Shown: positions 15,050-57,617 of the stretch, piece after piece
Layout of the letters: each line of letters starts with the position of its first letter
Position numbering within the stretch: the stretch's first letter is position 1
IMG/VR virus record: IMGVR_UViG_3300050821_011652
Reading direction: 5' to 3' (one strand)
DNA from: an uncultured virus (IMG/VR IMGVR_UViG_3300050821_011652)
Lineage: Duplodnaviria; Heunggongvirae; Uroviricota; Caudoviricetes
DNA: 64,000 nt
The notes under the pieces: model-generated
The model's database searches: none
The model's input: the letters and a program-made list of their open reading frames with translations, nothing else
Told to the model about the DNA's origin: nothing
Position numbers and translations under genes: made by a program

Positions 15050-15051
15050 TC

Positions 15052-16016: not shown

Positions 16017-16023
16017 ACGGGAT

Positions 16024-16136
16024 GGAACGGGCGAAACGGATGTCGCCCTGTTCCCCTGTGGCTCTGCAACCACGCACCCCAAATGCACGGTCGCAGGGCT
16101 ACAGGGGAGCATTAAGCTCCAAAGCACCAAAATATG
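16024..16136 (+). promoter_or_regulatory. Three-hairpin leader element copy
   Basis: P1-P2-P3 then AAAGCACCAAAAT-ATG. Confidence 0.8.
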
Positions 16137-16430
16137 AAACTATTCAAAATATCCCAAACCGTGAACGGAGGGTATGACACATATGACTCAGTGGTCGTAT
16201 GCGCTGAGGATGAAGAAGCAGCTCGAAGGATCCATCCGATGGGGGAAAACAACACTTATTTTCTGGATGAAGAGGACACCTGGATGCTGCGGCTCATCAA
16301 GGGCGGAGTTGTTCCTTACGGTGGTGGGGAGCGGGCGTGGGCACTTCCTAAAGATGTGATCGTTGAGTATCTAGGAGAAGCGCAGGGATGGAAGCACGGG
16401 GTTATTGTCGCGTCGTTTAACGCGGGGTAG
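16134..16430 (+). CDS. Phage hypothetical protein
   Basis: GYDTYDSVVVCAEDEEAARRIHP...VIVASFNAG. Confidence 0.7.
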   Translation: MKLFKISQTVNGGYDTYDSVVVCAEDEEAARRIHPMGENNTYFLDEEDTWMLRLIKGGVVPYGGGERAWALPKDVIVEYLGEAQGWKHGVIVASFNAG

Positions 16431-17417: not shown

Positions 17418-17586
17418 CCTACAAATACTACGAACTTGAATTTGAGAAACGCGACGATATTCCCTCCGTGTTCCTAAACGACACGATGAACCAATTGGCG
17501 TTCGAGGGTGAGGTTCTGCTCGCCTTTGACGATGGGTTTGGGGTTGAATCAACTCCCGATATGGAATGGTAATGTTCCACGGGTAC

Positions 17587-17705
17587 GGAACGGGGTGTGA
17601 CCTTGCACCCCTGTTCCCCTGTGATCCGGCAACCTTGTTATCTTTCCACCGGGTGGAAGGACCGCAGGGTCACAGGGGAGCAAAAACGCTCCAAGCACCA
17701 ATATG
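17587..17705 (+). promoter_or_regulatory. Three-hairpin leader element copy
   Basis: P1 covaried to GGGGTG/CACCCC; P2; P3; AAGCACCAAT-ATG. Confidence 0.8.
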
Positions 17706-17996
17706 AAGATCAAAGAATTGTTTAGTGATCAGTCCAAATGGACGAAGAAAACCGCCGCTCGAGATGCGAGTGGGACTCCTGTTTCGCCGTCCGATTCAGA
17801 CGCTGTTTGCTGGTGTCTGGCGGGAGGGGTTGCAAAGTGTTATCCGGGCGAAGAACGGTATAAGGTCCACGACGCAATCGTGGAGAAGTTATCCGGATCA
17901 GCCCAAGGCTATGGTTATGGATCGGCGTACGGCGACTGGAATGACCGGGCGTCGTTTGAAGAGGTGAAGGCGTTAGTTGAGCAATTGGATATATAA
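17703..17996 (+). CDS. DUF6197-like protein, paralog 1
   Basis: IKELFSD..W...AVCWCL.G...WND. Confidence 0.65.
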   Translation: MKIKELFSDQSKWTKKTAARDASGTPVSPSDSDAVCWCLAGGVAKCYPGEERYKVHDAIVEKLSGSAQGYGYGSAYGDWNDRASFEEVKALVEQLDI

Positions 17997-18000
17997 ATAC

Positions 18001-18161
18001 GGAAGGGGCGGCTTCCTTGTCGCCCTGTTCCCCTGCACCCACGTACCTTAAGGCGCGAGACAAGACGGGAGTTCACCACGGTTGAATGAACTAACCCATG
18101 GTCGCGAAAATGCGTGGGTGCAGGGGAGCAAAAACGCTCCAAGCACCAATCCAATTATATG
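18001..18161 (+). promoter_or_regulatory. Three-hairpin leader element copy with long P2 insert
   Basis: P2 CCCTGCACCCACGTA/TGCGTGGGTGCAGGG; P3; GCACCA. Confidence 0.8.
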
Positions 18162-18969: not shown

Positions 18970-19227
18970 AAAAACAGGGACGGAGAACCCCCCGGTTTCC
19001 CGTCCCTGCTTCAGTTATCCTCAATCCCAAACCCACTCAGGCTTGGGACACCGACTTTGGAGTACTGAAAGAGGTAAGTCAATATGAATAAAAGAATAAG
19101 AGAGTCATGTCGAACGTGAAATCAAAGAAGCTGAGGTCAGCGTGTGTCAACTGGAGGCGAAGCTTGTGGCCCTCTATAGGATTCTGAACGTTATCAAAAT
19201 CGAGGAAGCTAACGAGGCGAAGTAAAC

Positions 19228-19321
19228 GGAACGGGGTGCGCGCCTAGCACCCCTGTTCCCTTGATCCCGTACGATCACTCCGTATTGGATCAGGGGAGCA
19301 GAAAGCTCCGCACCAAATATG
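19228..19321 (+). promoter_or_regulatory. Three-hairpin leader element copy (shortest)
   Basis: P1, P2 CCTTGATCC/GGATCAGGG, P3, GCACCAAAT-ATG. Confidence 0.8.
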
Positions 19322-19693
19322 AATATCTATCAAAAACTATACCGCGGGATCAAGGATCACTGCGAGCTTGAAGACGACGCGATAATCGATGCGGGCCGGC
19401 ACGGCGCTGACGCTGGTTGGGGCGGTTTCTCTTACACCAAGGATTGCTGTGAGTTTTACGAAGCCAACAAGGAGGAGATTTGGGAGTTGCTGCGTGAGGC
19501 TGCTGATGGGCAAGGACTGAAGCCGCTTGAGCTTGTAGCGCAGTTCGGTCGTAGCGACATGGCAGATGACCCTGACGGGCTAGAGAACCTACTAGCCTGG
19601 TTTGCGCTAGAAGAAGTGGGACGCTGGCTGGAAGACAATCGGTCGGAGGGTGATGATTTTGAAGAGGAAGAGGAGTCGGACGAAAAGGATTGA
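19319..19693 (+). CDS. Acidic protein, possible DNA mimic
   Basis: GGFSY...FY...NLLAWFALEEV; acidic tail DDFEEEEESDEKD. Confidence 0.6.
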   Translation: MNIYQKLYRGIKDHCELEDDAIIDAGRHGADAGWGGFSYTKDCCEFYEANKEEIWELLREAADGQGLKPLELVAQFGRSDMADDPDGLENLLAWFALEEVGRWLEDNRSEGDDFEEEEESDEKD

Positions 19694-21509: not shown

Positions 21510-21519
21510 CCCTGTGCTT

Positions 21520-21924
21520 ATGTCACCCTGCATTGAGTGGAAAGGGACTCTCCGCGACAAGGATGGTTACGGGCGTCGGAAGTATAGAGGGAAAGTGTGG
21601 CAAGCCCATCGAGCAGCTTGGCATGAATGCAAAGGAGAAATCCCAAAGGATTTGTGGGTGCTTCATCGATGTGACAATCCAGCCTGTGTGCGGGTAAGTC
21701 ATTTGTTTCTCGGCACCCACCAGGATAATGAGGACGACAAATGTAGAAAGAATCGTCAGTCCAAAGGAGAGGGACACCGAAATGCGAAGTTGATTCAGAT
21801 TGATGTGGACTTGATTAGAGGTTTGTATTCAACCGGAGAGTTTCAGCAGAAAGAGCTAGCTGGAATGTTCCGGGTCGGCCAAAACCAGATATCGCGCATT
21901 GTCCGGCACGAAGAGTGGGCCTGA
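21520..21924 (+). CDS. HNH homing endonuclease with C-terminal HTH
   Basis: CIEW.G...GYG...AHR...VLHRCDNPACV..HLFLGT..DN. Confidence 0.85.
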   Translation: MSPCIEWKGTLRDKDGYGRRKYRGKVWQAHRAAWHECKGEIPKDLWVLHRCDNPACVRVSHLFLGTHQDNEDDKCRKNRQSKGEGHRNAKLIQIDVDLIRGLYSTGEFQQKELAGMFRVGQNQISRIVRHEEWA

Positions 21925-24657: not shown

Positions 24658-25176
24658 ATGGAACAGTCTACTTCAATAGCCGAGGACACGCTAGTCATCC
24701 CCTTAAGCCGTGGAATGACCACAGTCATTAGCCGGGAGAAAGAGTATCTCGCGGAGTTCAAGTGGTACGCACACAAGGGTCAACAGGGGGATTTTTATGC
24801 CGCTCGCACGTCTCAACAAGGGACCATCCGTCTTCACAGAGAAATCATGGGCGCGCAACTCGGTCAAGAGGTAGACCATATAAACGGCAATACGCTAGAT
24901 AATAGAACCGAGAATCTTAGGTTGTGTGGTCATACACAAAACATGATGAACAGAAAGCCACAGATCAACAATACCTCTGGCTTCAAAGGCGTCGTCTGGC
25001 ATAAACGGGCCCAACGGTGGTACGCTCGCATCCAGTGTCTAGATCGCGAGCACCATTTGGGATCCTTTGATCACCCTGAAAGTGCGGCCCGTGCCTATGA
25101 CGCCGCCGCGCGTGAGTTATTTGGAGAGTTCGCCCGTCTCAATTTCCCAATAGGTACAGAGTTAGGAGCAAGATGA
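24658..25176 (+). CDS. HNH-AP2 homing endonuclease
   Basis: LHREI...VDHINGNTLDNR.ENLR; AP2 domain SGFKGV.W...W.ARI...HLG.F...AARAYD. Confidence 0.9.
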   Translation: MEQSTSIAEDTLVIPLSRGMTTVISREKEYLAEFKWYAHKGQQGDFYAARTSQQGTIRLHREIMGAQLGQEVDHINGNTLDNRTENLRLCGHTQNMMNRKPQINNTSGFKGVVWHKRAQRWYARIQCLDREHHLGSFDHPESAARAYDAAARELFGEFARLNFPIGTELGAR

Positions 25177-32351: not shown

Positions 32352-35300
32352 TTATTCATTTAGTGATCGGGTTTGGGTTGAGACGGTTCCTGGCGGGAGG
32401 GTCTTCCCGGCTACTTGTGCGTTGTGTAACAAATTCTTTGTCGGGCGGTAAGGGACGTAGCGTCCTACCATTAGCGGCCCGGCTTCCTTATCGTACTTGC
32501 TCAACGCTTGATGTACTATGGCGGGTGCTACACCGGATTGAAGAGCTGCCTGGACCTTTTCGTGGATGTCCATGAATGCGTGGTAACGGGCAGCTTCCAT
32601 TTTAGCGTAGGTCTGCTTGATCTCGTCGCTGTCCATCGGGTGCCCCGGATTCTGAAAGGGGGAGGTGAAGATCTGCTCGACCTTGTGGAGGTCATCCATC
32701 TCGTCGTTCAAAGACGAACGGAGACGTTGACCCAGATCAACTTCAGCGATCTTTCCGCCGACAAGTTCTCCGCCAATATGTTCGGGAAGCGTCGTGGCCA
32801 TCCCGCCCGAGGAAGTGGTCTTTCCCATGGCCGTTGGAATCCAGCTGCGTATAACCCGACCTGGCGTCCCACCTTCCCATATCGGATCGAACGCGTAGCC
32901 GAGGCGCCCCATGAACTGTTCGGTGCCGGGAAGGTTCTCGTTCACGATCGATTGTCCAAAGTCGTTCTTATTGCCCAGTGCTTGGTAAATTCGCGGCACA
33001 ATAATGCCGGCGTCCGAGAAATTTCTCATTAACTGCCCCATGGTCTTACCAACCATCGTCGGGACGTCTTCATGGCCGGACATCGACCGTCCGATCTGGG
33101 TTACTGCATCGGTGAAGTAGGAGTAAGGGCTCGAGTAGTTCAGGTTCGCATATCCGATTTTTCCATTCTCGTGTTTGAAAAAGAGGAGCGCCGAGTTCTG
33201 CTCCCACCAGGGAAGAAGCTTTCGAAAGTTGTCGACGTCCTTATCACTCATCCCCACAGCCCTTGCGGTAGCCCATCCGATCAAAGCTGGTCCGGTGAGC
33301 GCGGCGCCGATCCCTGCGATGCGTCGGATGCCCGAAGAGGTAAGGACACCGTTCCCTTGCCTTACTCCTTCCTTTAGATCCTTGAACGCGTAGTAGGCTG
33401 AGTTCGTGGCCGCCCGCGTGGCTTCAGCGAAGTAGCCAGCGAAGGGTCCAAAGAAGGGCTGGTTCACAACGGCCCGTACATTTGGGCTCATCCGGCTCCA
33501 CGTCGGCATGGTGTCCCGAGTTCGTTTAGACGCCATCGAATCCAATTCGGTCGGGCTGTTCTGGGCGATATCAGGAAACGCTTTAGCCAACATCGAACGC
33601 TCCATCTCGAAGTTGAGAATTTTTCCCATCGAGTCGGCCGTGGCGTAAAAGTGCTCGGCAAAATTCTGTGTCTTGCGCAGGACCTTAAACACCGGGTTGT
33701 TGGCGAACTGCCCACTGATAGCGTCTTGAAGGTCGATTGGTTGCCCGGAGTTTTTGTTCCAAGCTTTAGAAATTTCCCGGAGTGTCCGCACGTTAGGATC
33801 TTGGTCGAGTAGCCCCAGCCCGCGATAGCGCAGGAGCTGGGCGCGCAAGCCTGGATCGTCCAATTTTCCCCAATCAGTGGCCAGGGTTCCCACGGCCTTT
33901 TTCACAGCGTCTGGGCTGAGCCCATGACCATTCATGAGAAGGTTGAAACCTTGAGTCGTATAGTTCCGCATCGCCGACCGGACAGAGTCAATAGTATGTA
34001 CTGTCTTAGCTACCCGGTTCATCTTCATGAGAAGATTCATGGTCGGGTTGTTTCCTGTACTTACTGCTCGGGCTGCTTTTAAAGCTTCCCGGATCTCTGG
34101 AGTGGTATACATCCCATCCAACGGATCATAGGCGCGGTTGTCTTCCTTTGCGATCTTCGCGTCGTGGATGCCATTGGGTTCTTTGAAGAGCCACTGGCCC
34201 TCTCCGGCCGATCGGATATCACGTAGCCCTTGAGATGTTGCAAGGAAGTCCGAGAGCTTCTGCATGGACTGGGCGAATACCGCTCGGGGATCAGTGTTCT
34301 CTCCCAATAGTGTCCGATACGATTCGGGTAGATCTTGGCGCTCTTTGAAAAAGGTGGTATCGGTTTTTGCTGCCGGCCGGCCAAAATTAGAATTGCCTTT
34401 TCCTTCGGCTATATCGCGGAAGTCTGACATCTGCCGGTCCACAAATCTCCGCATGGAGGAGTATTGAACCGTCTTTTCCGCCTCTGTCTTTGCTTTATCA
34501 AAGGCCTCTTTGAAAACGGCCCGGTGTTCGAGGGTACCGAACTGACCCGGGTTAACTTTCAGCCATTGAGCTTGAGCTTGAATGCCCGCATCCCGGGCCT
34601 TATCGCTCCTGAACTTTTCCACTAAATCTCGAGCGGCCTGGTCCTTTTTGGCTTCGGTCACATTACGCTCGATCCAGCGAGGGTCGTCGAAAATCCGATA
34701 GCTGCGTTTGGTGTAGAAGCCTTCGTTGTCGGCGAACTTAGCTGCCAGGTCAGGTGGCAAATAAACTTGAGCCTTTCGGGAGAGGTAATCGATTGAGTCA
34801 CGCATTGCGCGAATCGCCCGGTAAGTGTTGACAGGAAAGTCCGCCGGTGCCGCGCGGCCTTGCAAGATCTGGGTAAACTGTTCGAGTTTGGCCGTGGGTA
34901 GCTTATCAAGAGGACTGCCCTTGTAGTCTTGTCTCACTGCGCGGTCGAGGTCAGTCAGACGGTCGCGAACAATTTGTGCTGCCGCATCTCGCTTTGCTTG
35001 GATTTCTTGAGTAGCCTCATACGCCGGAGAGGAGCGGTAGCCGGTGTCCTCAGTGACCCTGGGCAGGTTCCCCTCAGAGGTCCAATCTTTCATCCATCGA
35101 CCGAACCTTCGGGTCCAAGAGTTCCGGTCCTCTTTATTTCCACCCAGAGCCCCCAACAATGGGAACGAAGTAGAATCTAGCGCCCGCCATGCTTCGGCGT
35201 ACTGGTGAGGCGTTATAGCATTCTGATTAAAAGCCTTATCCGCTTCGGAACGCAGGGCTTCAATATCGCGGTGTTCTAAACCCTTAGCCTGGGCGATCCG

Positions 35301-38300
35301 ATCCAACACGTCGGCCCCGGACTTAAGCCCTTCAAAAGCGCGAGGGTTATACTGTGACTCGAACGAGGGTTCTGGATTAGACTTAACATCGTTCCAATCG
35401 TGAGGCAGATTCTGCCTCGGGAGTTCCTCAGTATCTGGATGAATATCAGCCACCCGACGGTCGATTTCTGACCGGTCATCTTCCATCATTCGATTCTTGT
35501 ACCCCTGTAGCCCGTCGACTTCCACCCCTGCACCCATTAACCGGCGTCCCCCTTCAGTCACGGTTCCGATGCGCTCTAGCGTTTTGGATAGGACACTATC
35601 TTCTTTCCCACCGAACAGCCGGCTGACTGCGTCCCAGACCTTCGTCATCAAGCCCTTGGGCTTTGGTCCGGATATGTCCTTCATCCCGGATAGATGGCGT
35701 TGAAAATCTCCGTTAGTGAGCGCTTCAGAAACAAACTCTGGAAGGTTAATGAGGCCGTAGTACTTGTTGAACTTGTCGTCGAGAGCAGAGAAAATAAGGT
35801 TCCGGGTTGCGGGGTCGGCTGCTGCGAGTGCGCGGATTTCATCGGGGGTCGAGGGGTGGGAGAGAGCTTTCTGTCGTAGGGCGCCAAGGTCCTGGATCGC
35901 TGAACGCTCCGCGGGGGAAAGTTGGTCCATCCGGTCAAGCATGTAGGCATTGATCTTGCCGGCTGAAACCGCGTGGGCGAGCTCGTGTAGAATCGCTCGT
36001 TCGGTTTGGTCGTCATTCAGATCCTGGTTAATTCGGATCTTATCATTGGTGAGATGGTACATACCCAGCTCGCCATTTTTCATCCGCTCGACATTGATCT
36101 TGACCTCGGGACTTGATTCCAACGAGGCCTTGAGGAATTTAGCTACAGCGCCGTAGGTCGGGTTCTTAGTCTTCTCAGCGATAGCGTCGAGGATTGCCGA
36201 AGTCCCTTGCGCCACGTTGTACTTGGACAGCTTGCGGGCGAGGCGGACTTCCCCGGTGATGGGCTTGCGTTCGACGTCGGGCGCCGACAAGTACGGCCTA
36301 GAATCGCGTAGAAGTTGAGCGGCCTGATCCCTGGTAATGAACCGTCCATCTCCCGTCCGGTATCCTTGCTCTAGCATCGTGGATTTGAGTCCAGTTGCTG
36401 GCATGCCCTCAGTCGCCTCGCTTGGTACCCGAATGTGAATGCCCTGTCCGGATTGTCGAAGACTCGATCCTTCATGGATTTGAGCAAATGCTTGTGCTGC
36501 GTCCCAATGGTCTTTTCCGGTGGTGACCTGGTCGCCCAAACGTACCGCTGGTTCCATCCGGAACCCAGCGTCGTGGAGCATTCCTTCAAATGAACGGCCA
36601 CGATTTGAGCTTGGCGCAGAATGGAGAGGATTCGAATCGATCGGAACGCCTGGCCGGCGCGCGGCGGCGTCGTTGATCTGATCGGCCGTGGACCAGAAGT
36701 GGTCGAGGGCGGTTGACTTGGTATCGAATCCGAGAAGGTCGCCGACCCAGTTGGAAAGGCGTTCAAACCAGGAGTCGCCGTAGTAGCGAACCGATTTGGC
36801 GAAGGAGCGGAATTCAGGGGAGGAAAATAACTGGGCGGCCGCTTCGTGCGGATCGGATAGGGCGTACAGAACCGGCATCCATTTTTTCTCATCCTCCGTC
36901 AGGCGGTTGTAATCTATCCGGCTGTCACCGCTTGCTCGGCGCGCCTCGATCAGCGGCTGGACCTTTTGATAGAAACTATCCCGCATCTCGGGCGGAAGGG
37001 CCCCTAACACTTCCTGTCGAATGCGATCGAATCGGCGAACGAGTTCCTCTTCGTGAGGACCACGCGGGTCGGAAAGAACGGCGTGAGAAACTGCATGGGC
37101 CATCTCATGGGCCAAGACCTGATGCAGGTTGTTGGCATCGAGCTGACCCTTAGTCAGGAAAATCTTGCCGTCATGGTAGAAGCCGCCGGTCTCCGGCGAA
37201 TCAATGATGTGAATGCCGACCTGATTAAGCCGGTCACGTTGGGCCTCTAGCCGTGGGAGTGCCTCCTTAACCGAGTCATCCCCGTGCTCTTGGAGGGCTG
37301 TGAGCGCGTCGGCCGCGTTCCCGGTATGAAGCCGCTCGGCGACTGGATCTTTCGGACTACCCTCAACCTCGGTCCATCCCGGCCGCGGATCGGCGACGGG
37401 TGGGGACTGGAGCACCTTCCATCTCGCCTTGTATTCTTGCGGAGTGATCTCGCCGGAGTTCAATTTCTCCATCAACCCTGTGCGGGTATCAGGAGCTCCG
37501 CCGACGTTTACGCGGTCGGGGGAGGCGGGGTAGTTTGGCCCGCGTTCTGCAGTGCTGCCATTAGCTGATTCGAGTCCGGATCTCCCGGGTTCTGTGCCGC
37601 GTGCTCCTTGACCATTTGAGTTAGCTGATTCACCGGTAGCCGGGTGTTCAACAGCTGATGCTGGACGTGCGGAGGAAGCTTCTGATAGTGCTGCATCAGG
37701 GTGCTCAGAACCGCGTTCTCCGGAGGGCTTGTTTCGCCCGTTATCATGCTGAACATCCTCGGTCCCACGACCCGTTTCACCTGCGCCTGCAGTGCCTCGG
37801 CCGGCCTCAGTGGCGCCTGTGTCGCCTGTCCGCTCTGCAGATTCGCTGGGAGTTGGTCGGGGCTCTGAATGGGTGAGCCTTCCCCGGGCAAAATCTCGGA
37901 AGGACTCGAAGACGCGGTCTCGATCGGTGGCTGTGGTATTGGATTCATTTAGTGGTTCTCCAGAAAAAACCCCAAGGTGTTTGTCATCTAAGGCGGCGTT
38001 GAATGCTATCCTATCCTCGGGCGAAAGGGTAGCTCGAAATTGGTCGACAAGGTTACTGACATCGCCGTGGTCGCTCGCGGCCTGGGGCTCATGTTCAAAC
38101 TGTTGAGCTACGGTATCGTGCTCCATCTGAGGAGTCTGGCTTTGATCACCAACGACCTCATGCAGTGTGTCGCCACCTTCGGTCATCGGTCGATCTAGGC
38201 TTACGTCAGAGACAACGCCTTTGGCCTTTAGCTTCTCCAGTTCGCGTAGAGCGTCCTGTATGGAAGTGTTGAAAGTGCGCTTAGCAAAAGCGGTCACAGT

Positions 38301-40673
38301 TGAAGGCGATGCGTCCTCAGGGAGCTTGCCTTTGTGGACTTGATCAAGAAAGCGCAGAGTAGCGTCTGAGACAACATCATCCCCGGTCAATCGATGACCT
38401 GAATACCCTGATAACTTCGCGTCGGCCGCGGCTTGAAGGTCAGCGATGGTTCTGATCCCTGGACCAATCTGTGTCTCTCTTTCAGGAGTCAGTCTTTCCC
38501 ATTGCTTTGCGCGATCCAAGAATTCTGGTTTTTGGGACTGAAGAGTAACTCGATCGGTGATGGGGATTACAATGCCTGCCCCTTGCCCTCGGTTCCATTT
38601 TGCATCAAATCCATTTTGGTCAGCAAAGTCTTGATACTGGCCGCGGTCGGCGTGTGTAATTGGAATTTGCTGCCCGGAGTCAAGGGCTGCTTGCAGCCCG
38701 GCGGCGTCGTTTTCTTTGGCGAAGTCGGCGAATGTTTTCTTTTCCGGCGCTTGGGCCGGCCCGGTTTCTTGGGGTGCAGGTTCTGTTTCTGCATTTTTCT
38801 CAATTGGGACTAACTCGTTTCCATTAAAGTCATACTTCCCGCGCAGTTCTGGAGCGTGCTGTTCAAACTCTTCAGCGGTGACCGGTAGTCCTTCACTAAC
38901 CGCTTTGGCCAATCCAGTTTCGTCCTTTGCATGGATGAAATCGGTAAGCGTCTTTGTCGACTCTTCAGGCTTAACCGACGGTGCGGTTGGGACGGGTTCG
39001 GGTTCGTTTTGATCCTTAACGTCCTTGTCGAAAATGTCAGCCAGGTCACTGGGCGCTGTGGGCGGAGTGTTCCGCGCTTTGTCTGCCAGCTGCCGCTCGA
39101 CTGCTGCGGTTTGTGGTGAGTTGGCTTTATCTAACTCTCCCGCCGCTTTATCGTGCGCGTCTGCTTCCTGCTCCTTGGCCCTAACATCAAGGAGAGATTT
39201 CTTCGTCGCCTCTGGGAATGGCTGGATGAGCGTATCGTAAGCGTGGTCAGAATCCCGGAACACATCCGGATGATCCGTCGCCATCTGGTCGGCCAATTGA
39301 GACACAGCAACATGCGTGTCTTTAACTGCCTGAACCTCAGCCCTTTTCCTAGCGATCGTTCCTACCAAGGCTCCGCCGGCGCCCAGGATTAAACCCTGAC
39401 CTACGCCCGACACCGTCTCGCCTAGAATGTTACCCCACGGATTGTTGCCTGGCTCTCCCGTCCCGGAGGAAGCGTCAACCGCTTCCTTGATCCCCTGACT
39501 GCCTCCTGATATTAGCCCGAACCCAAAAGCGTCCTTCATCAACTGGGCCGGAATATTTCGAGCCGGGATCCCGGCGTTCAACATCGAAATGCCTTTGGTC
39601 GCGAGGATGGCTGAAGGGAGGGAGACGAGCAGACTATTCTGCCGGGCTAGTTCGTCCTGTTGATCTGAAGTGAGATTGGCAAACTTAGGGTTGTTCGCGA
39701 TCTGCGCTTTCTCCGACTGATAAATATCGCCTCGGGACTGAGCTTGCATCATCGCCGCGGTGATCCCCTGACCTACTCCGGGAATCGCTTCAGTCAGCAT
39801 GTAGGGGATCATGCCAGCCGCGTTCATCACAAACTTACCCGCCATCGAATTCCGCACCTTGGGGTCGATATCGTTCTCGATCCCTTGCTGCATGTCGCTT
39901 CCCCACTTAGCGACTGCATCGCCTGCGGTTCGAATGTCTTGGACCGGATGACCCGCGATAGCTTGCTGAAGATCTCCCGCTCGGCGGGTCAGATCGTTTT
40001 GAAAGTAGTCGTAGTCATGAGCTAACCGATTCGAGGGATTAGCAGCGGCCTCAGGATTTTCTTTGATGTAATCCTGATAGGCCTTCCTTGGATTCTTCTG
40101 CATCTCCTGAACATTGGAGAGCTCGGATTGGAGGTAGTTAAGGGGAACTTGGTTTAAAACTTTTCTATCCGCTGCCGCGCGTGGGTCCTCTAAGTCGCCA
40201 GCGTTAACTCCCGCTCCGGATACCGCTCCTGCGACCGAGGAAAGAAAACCGGCCGGCGCTAATCCTGCAATTGATTGAGCGGTCCCCTTCGGGTTTTGGA
40301 TGTCATTCGCCCGCGCCTGGCGCCAGGTGTTCGATTTCGCCGCGATGTCTTCTGGTTTCTCACCCGCTTCTCTGGCGCGGGCATTCACTTCATTCGCGTA
40401 CTGATCGACTATCTGCGATTTCTGGTCAGCGTTTAAAGTCTGCCACCGTGGGTCAGCAGTTAGCTGTTCCCATTCCGGAAGCAGCTGGGTAGTGTCGGGG
40501 GGAGCCGGCAGGTTGGAATAAGGAGCGACTTGAAACGCCGGATCGACGTTAGGCTGCGGCTTAGTCGGAGTGGGCGCAGGTTCCTGCAACCCTAGGGATT
40601 TGAAATCAGCGGCCTCGGTGGAAGTCGCGGGTCCGGGCCCATCTGCATTTAAAGAAGCCGTTGCTCCGGGCAT
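32352..40673 (-). CDS. Giant polyvalent internal virion/ejection protein (sigma-like domain, two zincin domains)
   Basis: 2773 aa; HEMAH and HELAH motifs each with downstream E; sigma-like segment; last gene of virion block. Confidence 0.8.
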   Translation of the reverse strand: MPGATASLNADGPGPATSTEAADFKSLGLQEPAPTPTKPQPNVDPAFQVAPYSNLPAPPDTTQLLPEWEQLTADPRWQTLNADQKSQIVDQYANEVNARAREAGEKPEDIAAKSNTWRQARANDIQNPKGTAQSIAGLAPAGFLSSVAGAVSGAGVNAGDLEDPRAAADRKVLNQVPLNYLQSELSNVQEMQKNPRKAYQDYIKENPEAAANPSNRLAHDYDYFQNDLTRRAGDLQQAIAGHPVQDIRTAGDAVAKWGSDMQQGIENDIDPKVRNSMAGKFVMNAAGMIPYMLTEAIPGVGQGITAAMMQAQSRGDIYQSEKAQIANNPKFANLTSDQQDELARQNSLLVSLPSAILATKGISMLNAGIPARNIPAQLMKDAFGFGLISGGSQGIKEAVDASSGTGEPGNNPWGNILGETVSGVGQGLILGAGGALVGTIARKRAEVQAVKDTHVAVSQLADQMATDHPDVFRDSDHAYDTLIQPFPEATKKSLLDVRAKEQEADAHDKAAGELDKANSPQTAAVERQLADKARNTPPTAPSDLADIFDKDVKDQNEPEPVPTAPSVKPEESTKTLTDFIHAKDETGLAKAVSEGLPVTAEEFEQHAPELRGKYDFNGNELVPIEKNAETEPAPQETGPAQAPEKKTFADFAKENDAAGLQAALDSGQQIPITHADRGQYQDFADQNGFDAKWNRGQGAGIVIPITDRVTLQSQKPEFLDRAKQWERLTPERETQIGPGIRTIADLQAAADAKLSGYSGHRLTGDDVVSDATLRFLDQVHKGKLPEDASPSTVTAFAKRTFNTSIQDALRELEKLKAKGVVSDVSLDRPMTEGGDTLHEVVGDQSQTPQMEHDTVAQQFEHEPQAASDHGDVSNLVDQFRATLSPEDRIAFNAALDDKHLGVFSGEPLNESNTTATDRDRVFESFRDFARGRLTHSEPRPTPSESAERTGDTGATEAGRGTAGAGETGRGTEDVQHDNGRNKPSGERGSEHPDAALSEASSARPASAVEHPATGESANSNGQGARGTEPGRSGLESANGSTAERGPNYPASPDRVNVGGAPDTRTGLMEKLNSGEITPQEYKARWKVLQSPPVADPRPGWTEVEGSPKDPVAERLHTGNAADALTALQEHGDDSVKEALPRLEAQRDRLNQVGIHIIDSPETGGFYHDGKIFLTKGQLDANNLHQVLAHEMAHAVSHAVLSDPRGPHEEELVRRFDRIRQEVLGALPPEMRDSFYQKVQPLIEARRASGDSRIDYNRLTEDEKKWMPVLYALSDPHEAAAQLFSSPEFRSFAKSVRYYGDSWFERLSNWVGDLLGFDTKSTALDHFWSTADQINDAAARRPGVPIDSNPLHSAPSSNRGRSFEGMLHDAGFRMEPAVRLGDQVTTGKDHWDAAQAFAQIHEGSSLRQSGQGIHIRVPSEATEGMPATGLKSTMLEQGYRTGDGRFITRDQAAQLLRDSRPYLSAPDVERKPITGEVRLARKLSKYNVAQGTSAILDAIAEKTKNPTYGAVAKFLKASLESSPEVKINVERMKNGELGMYHLTNDKIRINQDLNDDQTERAILHELAHAVSAGKINAYMLDRMDQLSPAERSAIQDLGALRQKALSHPSTPDEIRALAAADPATRNLIFSALDDKFNKYYGLINLPEFVSEALTNGDFQRHLSGMKDISGPKPKGLMTKVWDAVSRLFGGKEDSVLSKTLERIGTVTEGGRRLMGAGVEVDGLQGYKNRMMEDDRSEIDRRVADIHPDTEELPRQNLPHDWNDVKSNPEPSFESQYNPRAFEGLKSGADVLDRIAQAKGLEHRDIEALRSEADKAFNQNAITPHQYAEAWRALDSTSFPLLGALGGNKEDRNSWTRRFGRWMKDWTSEGNLPRVTEDTGYRSSPAYEATQEIQAKRDAAAQIVRDRLTDLDRAVRQDYKGSPLDKLPTAKLEQFTQILQGRAAPADFPVNTYRAIRAMRDSIDYLSRKAQVYLPPDLAAKFADNEGFYTKRSYRIFDDPRWIERNVTEAKKDQAARDLVEKFRSDKARDAGIQAQAQWLKVNPGQFGTLEHRAVFKEAFDKAKTEAEKTVQYSSMRRFVDRQMSDFRDIAEGKGNSNFGRPAAKTDTTFFKERQDLPESYRTLLGENTDPRAVFAQSMQKLSDFLATSQGLRDIRSAGEGQWLFKEPNGIHDAKIAKEDNRAYDPLDGMYTTPEIREALKAARAVSTGNNPTMNLLMKMNRVAKTVHTIDSVRSAMRNYTTQGFNLLMNGHGLSPDAVKKAVGTLATDWGKLDDPGLRAQLLRYRGLGLLDQDPNVRTLREISKAWNKNSGQPIDLQDAISGQFANNPVFKVLRKTQNFAEHFYATADSMGKILNFEMERSMLAKAFPDIAQNSPTELDSMASKRTRDTMPTWSRMSPNVRAVVNQPFFGPFAGYFAEATRAATNSAYYAFKDLKEGVRQGNGVLTSSGIRRIAGIGAALTGPALIGWATARAVGMSDKDVDNFRKLLPWWEQNSALLFFKHENGKIGYANLNYSSPYSYFTDAVTQIGRSMSGHEDVPTMVGKTMGQLMRNFSDAGIIVPRIYQALGNKNDFGQSIVNENLPGTEQFMGRLGYAFDPIWEGGTPGRVIRSWIPTAMGKTTSSGGMATTLPEHIGGELVGGKIAEVDLGQRLRSSLNDEMDDLHKVEQIFTSPFQNPGHPMDSDEIKQTYAKMEAARYHAFMDIHEKVQAALQSGVAPAIVHQALSKYDKEAGPLMVGRYVPYRPTKNLLHNAQVAGKTLPPGTVSTQTRSLNE

Positions 40674-41498
40674 TTAGTTCCCTTGATTAGCGTTTCCAAG
40701 TGCGGCGAGTTGGGCCGAGGTCGGTTGCTGTGAGGGATCAATCCCAGTCGCCTGCCAAGCCGGGGCGGGCTGTTGAGCCTGCGGAGCCTGCTGTGGCGCA
40801 GCCGGGGTGCCGGCGGCCACTAAGCTAGCATGTCCAAGGTCTTGGTCATTCCACAATTCAAATGCGTTGCTATTAGGATTGTTGGGCGACACGTAACTGT
40901 AGTCAGCAACGCGCATGTTAGAGCGCACTACGTTTCCATCTTTGTCGACTACATTAACAAAGGAGCCCAAAGGATATTTCGACAGCAGATTTGGCGCGAT
41001 GGCCAGATCTCCTTGTTGCAGTTTTCCTAACGGGCCGTTTAACGTGTCGTGAGTGTATTCTCCTTGACTAGGACCGTAGGCCATAGCCCGATAGAGTCCC
41101 GTTCCTCCGCCATCACCGGCTGAGGGAGAGGCGCCCGGGATTGCTTGATTCGCAAGGGGTTTGTTCGGGTCATATCCCTGACCTGCAGGAAGAGGTTGGG
41201 GTGTTGCCTGCGCGGCGATCGGTTGATTGGGATTCACACCCTGACCCGCGGGAAGTGGTGCCGTTTGAACTTGGGGTAGCGCTTTAAATCCTGAGTTCGT
41301 GTACTTCTCCAAATCGCCCGGGTTATTAACCAGGTGATTGACCATATCGTGCTGTCCGTTCAGCGCGAGAGAGGTTAATTGCTTGGCAGTCGCGTTTACA
41401 CTTTCGGGCGTCCACTTGTGTTTCTTGTCTAGCTTGTCGGATCCATAGTCGACCGGGGTCGTCTTAGGGGTGGAGAATGTGTCGTTACTGGGTATCAC
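40674..41498 (-). CDS. Internal virion protein with 3D/RlpA-like (peptidoglycan hydrolase-like) domain
   Basis: YRAMAYG...DLAIAP...YPLGSFVNV...RVAD...FELW; PLPAGQG repeats. Confidence 0.55.
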   Translation of the reverse strand: MIPSNDTFSTPKTTPVDYGSDKLDKKHKWTPESVNATAKQLTSLALNGQHDMVNHLVNNPGDLEKYTNSGFKALPQVQTAPLPAGQGVNPNQPIAAQATPQPLPAGQGYDPNKPLANQAIPGASPSAGDGGGTGLYRAMAYGPSQGEYTHDTLNGPLGKLQQGDLAIAPNLLSKYPLGSFVNVVDKDGNVVRSNMRVADYSYVSPNNPNSNAFELWNDQDLGHASLVAAGTPAAPQQAPQAQQPAPAWQATGIDPSQQPTSAQLAALGNANQGN

Positions 41499-42859
41499 GC
41501 GTTTTCTCCCTGTGCATTTTCAAGCGAGGCTAGTTGCTGACCGGAGTTATCTCCTCCGCCCGACATCGCGGACAATTGGTTCGTTCTCCATTCATGGATC
41601 GCGCCTAGTGAATTGAGAGTCTGGTCATCGATCTGGCTCGTGCCGGGCGTCGTACCTTGGGTCATGCCGGGTACGATTGTTTGTGTCCCGATTGTAGGAT
41701 TAATAAGATTGGGCTGTTGAGACGGATCCTGTATGGCGCCCGGGTTCAAAGGCGTGTTGGTGTTAGGAGCGGGAGCCGGGGTAACGTTCTTGTAAAAACG
41801 TTCGGTCGGGGCGACGGGCGTTGTGGGATTGTTTGCTGTGGGTTTTAAGATGCCTGCTTTTTGTGCGTCTGGGTAAATTTGGTCCGGGTTCAGTCGATAG
41901 TAAGCAGTCTTGGAGGGGTCGTCTTTAGTCAACGCATATCCCGCTTGGGCTAACTTTTCGGCCTCGCTGACCGCGGCCTTTTGTGGGTCATCGGTGTACG
42001 CGTTAAGGTCCCTGGGATTTTGCCCATTGTGATTCATAGCCCAGGCCCTCCATGCGCCCATTCCATTCTCGTCAATGTTCTGCTTGTTCTGTTCTTCCTC
42101 CTGCTTCTGTGTGGCCGGATTATTTCGCTTCTGAGCTAAACCATTCGCATACGAGAAAGCGTCTCCTGTAGATAATCCCAGCCCCCCTTGCTCTTTGGGT
42201 ACCTGCGCTTTATAAAAAGCGTTCCGTTCGTCGAGATTCCAGGCTGATTTGGCTTTTAGCATGTAGCCATTCGCGCCCCTGTCTTGACGTTCTTCGAGCA
42301 TTGAATCGGCCCTCTTAATCGCTTCTGATGTATTGAAATTGGTGTCGCCCAATAAATCTTGGGCCTTCCCATTCAAAATGTCGTCGTCCGACATTGAGTG
42401 TAGCTGTTGGGAGAATTTGCTTAATGTCGCATTATCTGCCGCTTGATTGTTTAATGCGTCAGTTTTTGCCTGGTTCTCAAGTTGGAATTGGGCAATCTGC
42501 GCTCGGGTCAATGCAACCTTTAGTGGGAATGTTTCCGCTTCAGCTTGGGCTTGAATCTTCGCCCGAGCTTCCTGCGCTTGCTCCAATGCTAATCGAGCAC
42601 TGTCCGATTGATTGTAATGTTCGGACCGCGCCTGTTCTAAAGCCAGGTACGCGTCGGCCCTTTTCGCGGTCGATTGAGAATTAAGCTGGGCAATGCGATC
42701 CTGCTCGTTTTCGTGCTGAGCCGTTTGATTTTGCGCCTGTCCTTGAAGAATGTAACGAAGAGGCTCGAGGGTCGCTTGGACGGCTTCACTATAATCGTGG
42801 ACGTAGTCTCTGGGAGTGCCAACGCCCGGATGAGTTACGAATTGTTGTGGGTGCCACAT
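41495..42859 (-). CDS. Putative ejection protein
   Basis: Q/A/N-rich helical protein positioned before giant protein. Confidence 0.6.
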   Translation of the reverse strand: MWHPQQFVTHPGVGTPRDYVHDYSEAVQATLEPLRYILQGQAQNQTAQHENEQDRIAQLNSQSTAKRADAYLALEQARSEHYNQSDSARLALEQAQEARAKIQAQAEAETFPLKVALTRAQIAQFQLENQAKTDALNNQAADNATLSKFSQQLHSMSDDDILNGKAQDLLGDTNFNTSEAIKRADSMLEERQDRGANGYMLKAKSAWNLDERNAFYKAQVPKEQGGLGLSTGDAFSYANGLAQKRNNPATQKQEEEQNKQNIDENGMGAWRAWAMNHNGQNPRDLNAYTDDPQKAAVSEAEKLAQAGYALTKDDPSKTAYYRLNPDQIYPDAQKAGILKPTANNPTTPVAPTERFYKNVTPAPAPNTNTPLNPGAIQDPSQQPNLINPTIGTQTIVPGMTQGTTPGTSQIDDQTLNSLGAIHEWRTNQLSAMSGGGDNSGQQLASLENAQGENA

Positions 42860-42862
42860 AAC

Positions 42863-43837
42863 TTAAAAGCTCATTCCATCTAGCCCAAGCCCCTGTGATC
42901 CATAGAAGTCGGTGGGGGTGGCATTAGGGCCAGCATTGTTCAAAGACGCCTGAAGCGAGCTATCAGCCGTTTGGGTGGTGCCTGGATTCGGCGGTCCTAC
43001 CTGCAGCTGACCGGGGTTGCCGTAGTAAGCGCCGCCTGGGTTAGAATTTAGAGGAGGAGTGGCCGTGCCATTATTTGACTGAGTGAATGCGTTATAGAGT
43101 TGCGACCCACTCTGCCCGAGTTTTGCGAGTGACTGTCCGAGGGCCGCTGTTTGTTGTTGCCCCAAGGTCGCGTTCGCCGCGCTAGCCGCGAAGGCATGGC
43201 CGGCATTGGCGAAGTCGACCTGGTCTTGCAGGTCGGTGTTGTACTGCGTCTGTTGATCCTGGCGTTGAAGAATCTGCTGAGGGCTGAAAAGCAAATCAGA
43301 CACGTTCATCTGGCTCGGGTTCAGCGCCGAAACCAAATTCATTTCAGACCCGGCCATAGAGGCGCCCGAGCTTTCAAGGCTCAGCGAAGTAAGCCCTAAA
43401 TCCCTAGCCGTTAAATTCCGCCCCATGCCTGTGCCCCCGTATCCACCCTGCAACGCCGAATAGGCGCTCGATTCCTCAATCTGCGCTTTCACGTCTTGAG
43501 GAATTAGACCCTTCGCCAGCGAGTTGGCATTCTGTCCAATAGTCGCGACAGTGTCGAGCATGTGCGGATCAAGCTTCAATACTTGATCCTGCCAGGACTT
43601 ATTGGCGAAAGTGTTGACCTCGTTAGCGAACGAGTTCAGCGAGGGGAGATTGTTTTCCTGCTGGAGGAAATCGTTAAAGGAACTCCCTACGGGCGCAAGG
43701 TTCAGGTAGTCGTAGGGCTGAAGCGTGATCTTTCCACCCTGGACCGCGCCGGCTCCGCCACCGCTTAAGGCGCCGGATGAGCTGAGGGCAGCCCCCGCGA
43801 TCGACCCTACCGCCCCGATAATCGCCCCAACTGCCAT
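42863..43837 (-). CDS. Putative ejection/pilot protein
   Basis: Gly/Ala-rich hydrophobic N-terminus; NLTARDLGLTSL. Confidence 0.6.
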   Translation of the reverse strand: MAVGAIIGAVGSIAGAALSSSGALSGGGAGAVQGGKITLQPYDYLNLAPVGSSFNDFLQQENNLPSLNSFANEVNTFANKSWQDQVLKLDPHMLDTVATIGQNANSLAKGLIPQDVKAQIEESSAYSALQGGYGGTGMGRNLTARDLGLTSLSLESSGASMAGSEMNLVSALNPSQMNVSDLLFSPQQILQRQDQQTQYNTDLQDQVDFANAGHAFAASAANATLGQQQTAALGQSLAKLGQSGSQLYNAFTQSNNGTATPPLNSNPGGAYYGNPGQLQVGPPNPGTTQTADSSLQASLNNAGPNATPTDFYGSQGLGLDGMSF

Positions 43838-44415
43838 TAGTTACCCGCCTCCAGTATGGCTCGATAACGTTCCGTATCCCCAGAACGAATCTGTTCAATA
43901 CCGGACGAAACATTTCTCGCCAGTACGTCGGCTTTAATCTGAACGTTGAAATCTCTCAGCATTCGAAGTCGTTGTTTATTCACCGGTTCCGATGGCACAC
44001 AAAAATCCCACACGGCTGTGGGGTCTAGCGCCCGGTAGTCCATCACTAGTGTTCTGGACTCATAGACTTCCGCAATGCGGTCAAGCTCTCGTTCAAATTT
44101 ATCCAGGATCCGCGTGTAATCAAACCCGAACCCTAGGGCACTCATTGACTGGTCAACCTCCGACCTCTCCCGGCGGACCACTACGATCCGGGCATGGGGG
44201 AAGAGATGAACCAGCGTATCGATAAAGAGGGTGTTTGCTGAATCAGAAACCCCGGCGTTCGGAACCCGCGTCGATTCAAGCAATTCCGGATATCCGTGGA
44301 CACCCGATCGTAAATACTGAAAGACCTCATGAAAGCAGAACGAAGTCCCATAGGTAAGAAAGTTGGCGATCCAGGCGGTGCGGGAGCGGGGAAGGGAACA
44401 GATGAAATAGTTCAT
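43837..44415 (-). CDS. Sulfotransferase-like P-loop protein
   Basis: FICSLPRSRTAW...CFHE...IVVVRR; ATG 44415 coupled. Confidence 0.6.
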   Translation of the reverse strand: MNYFICSLPRSRTAWIANFLTYGTSFCFHEVFQYLRSGVHGYPELLESTRVPNAGVSDSANTLFIDTLVHLFPHARIVVVRRERSEVDQSMSALGFGFDYTRILDKFERELDRIAEVYESRTLVMDYRALDPTAVWDFCVPSEPVNKQRLRMLRDFNVQIKADVLARNVSSGIEQIRSGDTERYRAILEAGN

Positions 44416-45989
44416 AGGACGGCCGCACTCAACGGCACGATTTCCTGCACTGTGACTTCCGACCACGGGTACGGATCCGAAACCGAGATAGTGAATGGTG
44501 TCATTTCGTTTAGATTCAACTGAGGTTGAGCAGCCGGTTCTGTGGAGGCTACGCCCAACGCGACCAGTTCTTGATTGACCTGAAACAAAGGACCGCCGGA
44601 GGGATCGGCGTTAATAAAGGGGTCGTAGACCTCAAAAAAATGCGCTCCCTCTGTAACACCCCGAGTCAACAGAGCAGGGTATCCTGCGACGTTCGCTACC
44701 AACGGTTGGGCTACGTACGGCAGGATGACCGATGAGAGATTTATCACGTCTCCCTGATAAATCTCGAACCAGCCAGGAGTGACCGTGGGGTAGGGTTGAT
44801 TGGACAGGTACTCCTGCGCCAGGACCATGATCTTTTTGAGAACGTCGGCATACCCCAGCGGGTCAGGTACTCCGCCACTGTCGTGCCAAGAGGTGTTTCC
44901 AAAGGCGACCAGTGACTCCTGCATCCCAATAATTACTCTGCCTTGGAACTCGGCCAGAATCGTAAAATTGCTGTTTGTTAAAAGAGCCTGGGCCGGGGGC
45001 GCAATTGTGGAAGTTAATTGATTTTTCTGTATCGCAAATCTCGGGCCATATTTAGTGATGTTGGCCCTTGTGATATGTTCACAAACATAGTTTGGATTGA
45101 CCTGGGTTGCAGTGGGTAAAATTCCGCCAGAGGTAGGATCTAGATTTCCGTTGCGACCAACGGCTAAAGTCATGATAGCGTTGGGAAAAGCGCCCGCGAT
45201 AGTATCGATAGTGGCCTGGACCGTGTTGATTATACGAGTGGAGGTATACAAATAAATTCGGGAGACCAGATTGTTAATATCCGAGACGGTAACAAGACTG
45301 CCCGCTAGAATCGTACCGGAAGAGGCGTTCCCGGCGGTGCCTAAATTTGTTAGTTGGACACTAGTGGGGTGACTTTGAGGACCGTTGACATCGGTAGCTT
45401 GGAAAAAACCAAAGCCGGTGATGTATCCGATTGACCCCGCAAAGACCGGCTGGTTCGGCTGTGGGACGACAGTAACCGTTGCCCCGTAAGCCGGGCAAGT
45501 CACATTCGCGGATATATTCCAGGTAGAGGTTCCGTTTGGTATTCCCCAATCTCCAGAATGGGTAACGGCTATTTCGATTGCGATTACTTTGAGGCTGTTA
45601 TTTGCCCCGTATCGCGCGCCAACAGCCTGATACATTGCTTGCAGATAGGGGTTCACCACCGGGTCCCACCAGACCCAGAGAGTCTGCCCCTGACTATCGG
45701 TGTAAGACTGCATCCCTGGTAACTGGAATAGCCATCCCGGCGCCCCGTTTTGTACGAGAACCCTAAGCAGAATTCCTTTACCGGCCGTCGTCACTCTGCC
45801 GATTTCTGAATCGAGATAAGACCAGTCGTAGCTGGGATCGGTGGGGTTGTTTGTCGGACCTCCCGTGGGTTCCAGGGGTTGCAGGCCGCCCCAAGCGGAG
45901 CGGATACTAACCCACTGGTTAACCGAGCTAGGAGCTAGTACCGCCGCGTCGCAGGGCACTCCGACATCGCCTAAAGAGGATACAATCAT
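44412..45989 (-). CDS. Virion-associated clan GH-A-like glycoside hydrolase
   Basis: W..L.P...YDWSYLD...GKGILLRV...PGW...WWDP...GARY. Confidence 0.6.
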   Translation of the reverse strand: MIVSSLGDVGVPCDAAVLAPSSVNQWVSIRSAWGGLQPLEPTGGPTNNPTDPSYDWSYLDSEIGRVTTAGKGILLRVLVQNGAPGWLFQLPGMQSYTDSQGQTLWVWWDPVVNPYLQAMYQAVGARYGANNSLKVIAIEIAVTHSGDWGIPNGTSTWNISANVTCPAYGATVTVVPQPNQPVFAGSIGYITGFGFFQATDVNGPQSHPTSVQLTNLGTAGNASSGTILAGSLVTVSDINNLVSRIYLYTSTRIINTVQATIDTIAGAFPNAIMTLAVGRNGNLDPTSGGILPTATQVNPNYVCEHITRANITKYGPRFAIQKNQLTSTIAPPAQALLTNSNFTILAEFQGRVIIGMQESLVAFGNTSWHDSGGVPDPLGYADVLKKIMVLAQEYLSNQPYPTVTPGWFEIYQGDVINLSSVILPYVAQPLVANVAGYPALLTRGVTEGAHFFEVYDPFINADPSGGPLFQVNQELVALGVASTEPAAQPQLNLNEMTPFTISVSDPYPWSEVTVQEIVPLSAAVL

Positions 45990-55826: not shown

Positions 55827-55882
55827 GCTTAGAGGAACAATAAATCAGATATGGATCGGACGCATTCCATATTTCCGAGCGC

Positions 55883-57146: not shown

Positions 57147-57617
57147 CTAAAGAAACAATAATGCAGATATGGAATCGGCGCATTCCATATTTCTGGACTG
57201 AAGGAAGCGAAGAGTTCGCCCGATAATCTTCATCTCCGCCACCGAAAAAGTATCAGAACGAATGCGATTGCACTGGGCACAACAAGGCACAATGTTGCCT
57301 GGACTGTACCCACGAGCGTTATTTATACGGTCAGCGCCGACGCCCTTTTCTACTCCGCAGTAGTGACAAGGCTTTGATAAAACGTGCTTCTCCAACCATT
57401 CCTCAGTTATGGTCACAGACAAACCCCGCCGACGACTTCTGCGTTGATAAAAATACAGCAAGCGGTGCGCCCGATGATTCAATGAATAAACCTTATCGCG
57501 CTTAGCAGAACAGACGCGACAAACGCGGGCAAGCCACCGTTGACCGCGCTTGCGAAAATATTCCTCCGTCTCTGGTTTCTCCTTCTTACAACGCGAGCAG
57601 CGCCGGAGTTCTGTCAT
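57147..57617 (-). CDS. HNH homing endonuclease inserted in tail block
   Basis: CSRC...CRVC; CHYC...DRINN.RGY..GNIVPCC..CN. Confidence 0.85.
   Translation of the reverse strand: MTELRRCSRCKKEKPETEEYFRKRGQRWLARVCRVCSAKRDKVYSLNHRAHRLLYFYQRRSRRRGLSVTITEEWLEKHVLSKPCHYCGVEKGVGADRINNARGYSPGNIVPCCAQCNRIRSDTFSVAEMKIIGRTLRFLQSRNMECADSISALLFL

Follow-up and report, generated by a model that had tools for sequence, protein, structure and literature searches.

A candidate sigma-like, RNA polymerase-binding module within a putative giant virion protein of an uncultured short-tailed phage

The locus and its features

We analysed a stretch of phage DNA (the window) that represents 64,000 of the 76,861 bases of the contig in the uncultured virus record IMGVR_UViG_3300050821_011652 (IMG/VR); the remaining 12.9 kb lies outside the data. 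A giant open reading frame (ORF), P0001, is located at the end of the structural gene block and unites unrelated parts: hydrophobic segments near the N-terminus, a sigma-like module, a pair of HExxH regions and a module related to virion proteins (Table 1). We lean towards reading residues ~726–934 of its 2773 amino acids (aa) as a strongly diverged sigma70-family module with the layout of the extracytoplasmic function (ECF) sigma factors, carried as the cargo of an ejected polyvalent protein and predicted to bind the host RNA polymerase.

The first-pass annotation had proposed a sigma-factor-like domain at window positions 37875–38450 from four short peptides. This span corresponds to aa 742–933 and we found all four peptides inside it and in one ORF, at aa 765–776 (window 38346–38381), 795–810 (38244–38291), 825–843 (38145–38201) and 875–891 (38001–38051). 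The domain had also been described as flanked by low-complexity linkers, which is correct for the C-terminal side, where a linker of 126 aa (G21 A18 S15 E14 P11 R11 T10) directly adjoins the module; on the N-terminal side the P/E/A/T-rich stretches lie ~80–180 aa upstream and are not adjacent.

Table 1. Features of the window, with positions in the window and residues of P0001 where these apply
Feature	Position	Strand	Basis
Giant ORF P0001, 2773 aa, putative polyvalent virion protein with the module	32352..40673	minus	ORF list and translation
N-terminal region with three hydrophobic Gly-rich segments (aa 133–156, 347–367, 420–442)	39348..40277	minus	Kyte-Doolittle
Sigma-2-like domain (aa 726–819), with region-2.2-like helix (aa 763–781)	38217..38498	minus	Pfam, AF2, Foldseek, VIA-align, co-fold
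Acidic linker (aa 820–871), at the position of region 3.2 or of an ECF linker	38061..38216	minus	Charge, AF2
Sigma-4-like three-helix domain (aa 872–934), degenerate helix-turn-helix	37872..38060	minus	AF2, VIA-align
Low-complexity G/A/S/E/P/R/T-rich linker (aa 935–1060)	37494..37871	minus	Composition
First zincin (SprT-like) core (aa 1179–1221), HEMAH at aa 1189–1193	37011..37139	minus	Pfam
Second HExxH metallopeptidase-like region (aa 1516–1580), HELAH at aa 1563–1567	35934..36128	minus	PHROG 87
Conserved C-terminal virion module (aa 1923–2724)	32502..34907	minus	PHROG 22602, tblastn
Intergenic cassettes (examples)	15045–15135, 15560–15700, 16015–16140, 17578–17710, 17992–18122, 19219–19330		

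Sigma likeness of the region-2 part

The only Pfam match of the segment is Sigma70_r2 (PF04542), detected at aa 755–811 with an E value of 0.15 and 12.3 bits over profile positions 14–67 of 71. The match recurs independently, at an E value of 0.16, in P0002, a relative of 2678 aa, and is therefore found in both members (2/2). The ESM Atlas feature search with aa 755–935 placed a viral cluster named 'Sigma-70 family RNA polymerase sigma factor' first (0.95; recognition 3058), and the cluster at rank 9 carries PF04542 in 33% of its members.

Structure prediction and comparison pointed to the same family. The single-sequence AlphaFold2 (AF2) model of aa 700–945 has a predicted local distance difference test score (pLDDT) of 78–90 over aa 729–819. 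Searched against the Protein Data Bank (PDB) by Foldseek, this model (domain aa 726–825) retrieved sigma or RNA polymerase–sigma entries in 48 of the 48 matches listed, the chains being taken as sigma from their chain letters and lengths; the best E value was 0.011 and the ECF sigmas 5uxx_A and 6jcx_F are among the matches. The comparison with 48,161 chains by VIA-align placed ECF sigma-2 domains at ranks 1–3, with a root-mean-square deviation (rmsd) of 2.9–3.2 over 76–88 aa: 5uxx_C (Z 7.8, rmsd 2.9, 88 aa), 5zx2_F (Z 7.4) and 1h3l_B (Z 7.0). Sigma-2 domains account for 16 of the best 50 rows. Among the viral models of BFVD, 17 of the 24 functionally named rows were phage sigma or RNA polymerase–sigma proteins, and one was an LPD-containing protein.

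A cyclin/TFIIB-like fold was considered as another candidate, with seven VIA-align rows at Z 5.4–6.5, four of them with an rmsd of 5.9–8.0, and was ranked below sigma because the sigma rows have a higher Z at lower rmsd. The first-pass annotation had proposed a structure comparison as a check of its idea, and for the region-2 part of the model the sigma-2 fold is the nearest in both Foldseek and VIA-align. The weight of the fold case comes from the agreement among methods and not from any single score. As far as the models go, the sigma likeness of the region-2 part is above chance by fold, language model and co-fold.

Predicted docking on the beta-prime clamp helices

Residues 722–830 of the phage protein (with the P0002 row) were co-folded with E. 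coli beta-prime (RPOC_ECOLI, residues 235–335) in three runs and with three controls. The score was 0.76, versus 0.00 for the best control; this mark is reached by 116 of 157 solved complexes and by 2 of 215 mismatched pairs. At least 78% of the contacts are common to the runs, and the partner has a pLDDT of 80 or more. In the confident contacts, beta-prime 267–298, which we take to be the clamp-helix coiled coil to which sigma region 2.2 binds, meets phage aa 758–780, the region-2.2-like helix. Co-folding with these clamp helices had been put forward together with the original idea of a sigma-like domain, and the docking of the region-2.2-like helix in the models agrees with it.

The acidic linker and the sigma-4-like half

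The linker that follows the sigma-2-like domain has a net charge of -11 over 52 aa and an isoelectric point (pI) of 4.16, and is predicted to be disordered (AF2 pLDDT below 50). Its counterpart in P0002 has 39 aa and a net charge of -7. An acidic linker of this kind suits region 3.2 or the linker of ECF sigmas.

For the last part of the module, AF2 was run on aa 862–940 alone with a two-row alignment including P0002, resulting in a mean pLDDT of 67.5. The model has helices at aa 866–882, 885–901 and 912–934, with a low-confidence loop at aa 902–911. The helix-turn-helix (HTH) had been called degenerate from the letters alone, and the model fits this description, having three helices and a loop that replaces the first HTH helix. 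VIA-align of the same residues detected sigma-4 domains at ranks 1, 2 and 5 (6dv9_F, Z 5.9; 3mzy_A, Z 5.7; 2h27_D, Z 5.2), and at least 21 of the 50 rows were sigma-4 domains, with the sigma-4 range of the chain aligned in every case. The region-4-like half may be a sigma-4 domain, but the case is weaker than for the region-2 part. When the halves are folded or searched on their own, the first is matched by sigma-2 and the second by sigma-4 domains, which is the N-to-C order of a sigma factor.

Relatives and conservation of the module

The search of 1.84 billion representatives with aa 700–945 detected one true relative, P0002; a second match, the peptidoglycan-binding repeat protein P0003, was spurious. 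A word-indexed search returned only P0001 itself and P0002. No relative was found in the viral contigs and species genome contigs, and the sole match in metagenome contigs was an 8-kb contig 100% identical to the window, that is, the same phage. The phage collection had neither a DNA match to the window nor a protein match to the segment, and no close phage was found.

P0001 and P0002 are 74.7% identical overall and all their indels are in-frame, from which we conclude that the ORF is real. Identity differs strongly along the protein: 40% in the sigma-2-like part, the lowest of any folded part, 27% in the acidic linker (with a 14-aa indel), 74.6% in the sigma-4-like part, 38.9% in the low-complexity tail (with a 46-residue insert in P0002), 79–86% in the zincin regions and 81% in the C-terminal module. 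A further stretch of ~111 residues between the zincin regions (aa 1352–1464, window ~36282–36617) is absent from P0002. With these indels (14, 46 and ~111 residues), the cargo region is plastic.

The giant carrier protein

The first zincin core was detected by Pfam SprT-like with an E value of 1.6e-8 and 34.8 bits, above the 25.6-bit cut-off. The second HExxH region matches PHROG 87, 'metallo-protease' (E 4.7e-9), as well as Pfam DUF6782 (0.001) and Peptidase_M78 (0.0037), the latter two under their cut-offs. The hydrophobic N-terminal segments were called by a Kyte-Doolittle 19-residue window above 1.2. The C-terminal module includes a match to PHROG 22602, 'virion structural protein' (E 5.5e-23, aa 2049–2501), and a weak signal of Pfam LPD38 (aa 2487–2587; E 0.03, 14.8 bits versus a 27-bit cut-off).

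A tblastn search with the C-terminal 1023 aa matched 11 phage records. Among these are proteins annotated as virion structural in the Cellulophaga phages phi18:3, phi13:2 and phi19:3, and a structural protein of Pelagibacter phage HTVC027P. Another match (E 2e-42) is a protein of Pseudoalteromonas phage vB_Pun_Y3 annotated as ADP-ribosyltransferase, whose gene follows another giant ORF. Variable cargo on a conserved C-terminal virion module is the pattern of polyvalent proteins, as these are presented in the text of Iyer, Burroughs, Anand, de Souza and Aravind 2017 (PMC5512222).

P0001 has no Cys in 2773 aa, and P0002 is also Cys-free. The 46 other ORFs considered in the window average 1.08% Cys, and at that rate the probability of no Cys in 2773 aa is ~7e-14. 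The three ORFs directly upstream (40674–43837, minus strand; 274, 454 and 324 aa) are Cys-free as well, giving a four-ORF total of 3825 aa at 32352–43837, and had no Pfam or PHROG match. We read this Cys-free run as a putative gene block for ejection proteins or internal proteins of the virion. Judged from such sequence features, P0001 is probably packed in the virion and ejected with the DNA.

Just upstream of the sigma-like module, aa 574–700 (window ~38574–38952) hold two tandem motif copies of ~45–60 aa, read from the translation as KTLTDF...GL..A...G and KTFADF...GL..A...G.

Other features of the window

The window (GC content 52.9%) is phage DNA. The products recognized by Pfam and PHROGs include exonuclease, helicase, integrase, endolysin and head protein; a family A DNA polymerase spans two ORFs, and one domain belongs to the podophage GP4 fibre protein gp80. 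No tRNA genes were found in the window. The statement of the first-pass annotation that the window has no recognizable phage RNA polymerase holds: no RNA polymerase family and no free-standing sigma was detected by Pfam among the 84 other ORFs of the window or by PHROGs among the 33 larger ones. A phage RNA polymerase may be encoded elsewhere, in the 12.9 kb of the contig beyond the window.

The small-ORF early region (window ~14.4–25.8 kb) contains repeated intergenic cassettes (Table 1). Each comprises a hairpin with the arms GGAACGGG.../...CCCTGTTCC, an invariant CCCTGTTCCCCTG with CCCTG copies at a spacing of 8 nt, another hairpin (CAGGGGAGC...GCTCC) and, at the start codon, the conserved leader GCACCAAAATATG. 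CCCTG was counted 102 times on the plus strand versus 62 times on the minus strand (62.5 expected), and the 17-nt core of the cassette had 0 exact matches in viral contigs. GGAAC resembles the -35 element of many ECF promoters. In the cassettes it is a hairpin arm at variable distance from any -10-like element, and nothing therefore ties the cassettes to the sigma-like module. The CCCTG arrays, which had been suggested as a possible partner of the sigma-like domain, do exist, but their link to it is pure conjecture.

The family A DNA polymerase is distributed over two overlapping plus-strand ORFs (window 4414–5478 and 5466–6335), which match the consecutive PHROG 17 profile positions 704–1002 and 1008–1230 and may represent a split gene, a frameshift or a sequencing error. 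An endonuclease VII/HNH-like ORF (57147–57617, minus strand) with 10 Cys in 156 aa lies within the structural gene block, and a 46-nt repeat, 83% identical, at 55830–55875 and 57148–57193 flanks the genes next to it. HNH-AP2 and HNH ORFs were detected at 24658–25176 and 21514–21924, respectively. All of these may be homing elements. In the late block, the minus-strand ORF at 43837–44466 is sulfotransferase-like or hydrolase-like (Pfam Sulfotransfer_3, E 3.7e-5, below the cut-off; PHROG 10855, E 1.8e-13).

Discussion

A number of results weigh against a polymerase-binding sigma module. The Sigma70_r2 match (12.3 bits) falls below the 24-bit cut-off and every curated threshold is missed; Pfam Sigma70_r4 and r4_2 have no match at E values up to 10 in either P0001 or P0002, and NCBIfam has no match for the segment. 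No sigma was found among the PDB sequences, either with the segment by phmmer or with the two-row profile, which gave one unrelated match (E 1.8). The phmmer matches to designed pentatricopeptide repeats were rejected as an artefact, being sums of nine sub-threshold repeats, each with an independent E value above 100. Smith-Waterman alignments of four domain pieces with E. coli RpoE were at chance level (z -0.53 to 0.31), with 188–374 of 500 shuffles equalling or beating the score. In one of the four, the last helix (TDRDRVF) is in register with the region-4.2 helix of RpoE, T-x-R-x-R-(V/I)-F being common to both, at a score that is itself at chance. The comparison of the two-row profile with the single E. 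coli RpoE sequence by hhalign was uninformative (probability 0.1); none of the 120 RpoE relatives listed was less than 86% identical to RpoE, and as they could provide no useful sigma profile they were not used. Taken by sequence alone, the sigma likeness is marginal and not above chance.

The structural evidence has its own weak points. The scores are middling (Foldseek E values of at least 0.011, VIA-align Z below 8), in a range that is common for helical models according to the tools, and the AF2 model of aa 700–945 is fragile, since only one of the five models reached a mean pLDDT of 62 and the rest had 39–45. For the sigma-4 part, Foldseek gave no match at E ≤ 0.001 (SigR region 4 was at rank 2, E 3.4), and the language-model search with this part alone had no sigma signal, its top clusters (0.86; recognition 1655) being capsid fragments. 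The loop at aa 902–911 takes the position that the first HTH helix has in sigma-4, and the model lacks this helix. Nor is the domain basic, with a net charge of -3 (pI 4.9) in P0001 and 0 in P0002; such an acidic or neutral charge is unlike that of DNA-binding sigma-4 domains. The family is tiny, and from a surface that has to fit a conserved target one would expect more conservation than the sigma-2-like part shows. The co-fold result shows likeness to solved holoenzymes and may reflect the model's memory, and E. coli beta-prime is a stand-in for the enzyme of the phage's own host.

Taking both sides together, we consider true sigma homology of the module probable. For its binding to RNA polymerase, as predicted by co-folding, the balance tips slightly in favour, and promoter-specific sigma activity appears doubtful. 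The module is likely a sigma-derived, RNA polymerase-binding cargo. The first-pass annotation had suggested an injected factor that redirects the host polymerase to phage early genes. The first half of this suggestion fits a sigma-like module in ECF order, with predicted clamp docking, in a protein with the marks of an ejected polyvalent virion protein; the redirection to phage early promoters does not find the same backing, with no region-4 match, a missing first HTH helix, an acidic or neutral sigma-4-like domain and a sigma-2-like part only 40% identical between the two proteins.

The polyvalent protein would be packed in the particle and ejected into the cell with the DNA. The module may then stay tethered, or the two in-cis zincin peptidases could cut it free at the flanking low-complexity linker, and it would bind the host core RNA polymerase ahead of any phage gene expression. 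The most likely use would be the capture of the polymerase for the incoming genome, leading to immediate-early transcription and possibly to transcription-assisted DNA entry. A productive role is favoured over a pure block since no phage RNA polymerase or free sigma is found among the window ORFs. Once bound, the module might act as a sigma, a decoy or a tether.

A helical spacer or relic, that is an old domain of sigma origin that drifts under relaxed constraint, or else a fortuitous resemblance, in either case serving only as packing or linker material with no polymerase role, is the alternative that bears on the fold itself. It agrees with sequence evidence that is sub-threshold throughout, with Z and E values in the range common for helical models, with a sigma-2-like identity (40%) near that of the low-complexity linker (38.9%) and lowest among the folded parts, and with the plasticity of the cargo region, where the three indels lie nearby. 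Four partly independent methods (Pfam, the language model, Foldseek and VIA-align) nevertheless rank sigma first, the two halves find matching sigma domains in the correct order, the co-fold controls scored 0.00, and the conservation of the sigma-4-like part equals that of the protein at large, which makes a spacer or relic rather unlikely in our judgement. At the other end, a complete pre-made sigma, packed in the capsid, released by the zincins, loaded on the host core and reading the early cassettes (hairpin, CCCTGTTCCCCTG and leader), seems improbable to us.

The same docking prediction would be expected of a sigma mimic that works as an inhibitor or decoy, filling the sigma sites on the core (the clamp helices, perhaps the beta flap) without reading promoters, so that host transcription is shut off or re-balanced at entry. 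Such a mimic would suit the acidic or neutral sigma-4-like domain that lacks the first HTH helix in the model and has no region-4 family match, and the 74.6% conservation of this part would suit a protein–protein surface. On the other hand, with no phage polymerase found in the 64 kb a blanket block would hit the phage too, unless a polymerase gene lies in the other 12.9 kb or the block acts selectively; on stoichiometric grounds, the one copy or few copies that a virion brings would face thousands of polymerase molecules; and the last helix is in register with the RpoE region-4.2 helix, though with an alignment score at chance. We hold a decoy to be unlikely. The module might also remain attached as a tether that holds the host polymerase at the envelope channel and the leading DNA end, so that transcription pulls the genome in with no promoter choice. 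Its place between the hydrophobic Gly-rich N-terminal segments and the virion module, with long flexible linkers, and the predicted polymerase binding would allow this, and there is a precedent in T7, whose genome entry is driven by transcription. The two in-cis zincin domains argue for the release of domains, in line with the text of PMC5512222, and we regard a permanent tether as very improbable. The reading of residues ~726–934 as a diverged, polymerase-binding sigma module is the one that we prefer.

The context of such a module would be new, being a putative sigma70-family fold delivered within a virion protein, with the sigma-4-like half following the sigma-2 half in ECF order. If the models are right, the phage may carry a ready-made grip on the host RNA polymerase. 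Should the improbable case of a complete sigma be true, the first phage transcription would need neither a host sigma nor a phage polymerase, and this would be a third way to seize transcription at infection, beside virion RNA polymerases and injected modifying enzymes.

Comparison with known systems

The module is like the ECF (group 4) sigmas in the order of sigma-2, acidic linker and sigma-4-like part and in its ECF-typical lengths, especially in P0002. Both halves are nearest to ECF rows, and co-folding predicts docking of the region-2.2-like helix on the beta-prime clamp helices. The nearest solved ECF sigmas are Bartonella RpoE (5uxx), M. tuberculosis SigH (5zx2/6jcx) and SigL (6dv9/3hug), S. 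coelicolor SigR (1h3l/5fgm) and E. coli sigmaE (2h27/2mao). Unlike these free subunits, the phage module comprises residues 726–934 of a 2773-aa protein, stays under the Pfam and NCBIfam thresholds, has a loop in place of the first HTH helix and has a sigma-4-like domain that is not basic.

Polyvalent proteins were proposed to be injected, processed by zincins and able to 'jump-start transcription', according to the text of Iyer et al. (PMC5512222). P0001 resembles the proteins described there in being giant and multidomain, with interspersed zincins, a virion-associated C-terminus and predicted delivery with the DNA; its LPD38 signal is weak and below the cut-off. The main text of that paper has 0 occurrences of the word 'sigma', and its supplements may list more domains. 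In our full-text searches of the literature we found no description of sigma factors within polyvalent, virion or ejected proteins. A sigma-like cargo would extend the catalogue of polyvalent-protein cargo by a class of transcription factors.

Free-standing phage sigmas include the nearest viral folds to the module, as found in BFVD, but they are made after infection from their own genes, whereas the module would be pre-made and delivered. The text of PMC7824862, in the part considered here, treats the free-standing sigmas of jumbo phages and polyvalent proteins separately. T4 Alt is a head-packaged, injected protein that retargets the host polymerase, as summarized in the text of PMC5512222; unlike the module, Alt is an enzyme and not a sigma.

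The virion RNA polymerase of phage N4, in the account given in the text of PMC5512222, is a giant protein of the virion that has zincin peptidase domains fused to it and carries the capacity for transcription into the cell together with the DNA. The concept of virion-delivered transcription capacity is the same, and no N4-type homology was detected in P0001 by Pfam or PHROGs. N4 brings a whole single-subunit polymerase, whereas the phage module is only docking- or specificity-like and would depend on the host core. The known routes of takeover are sigmas made after infection, injected enzymes (for example T4 Alt) and whole virion RNA polymerases (for example in N4); a delivered sigma-like docking module would be one more.

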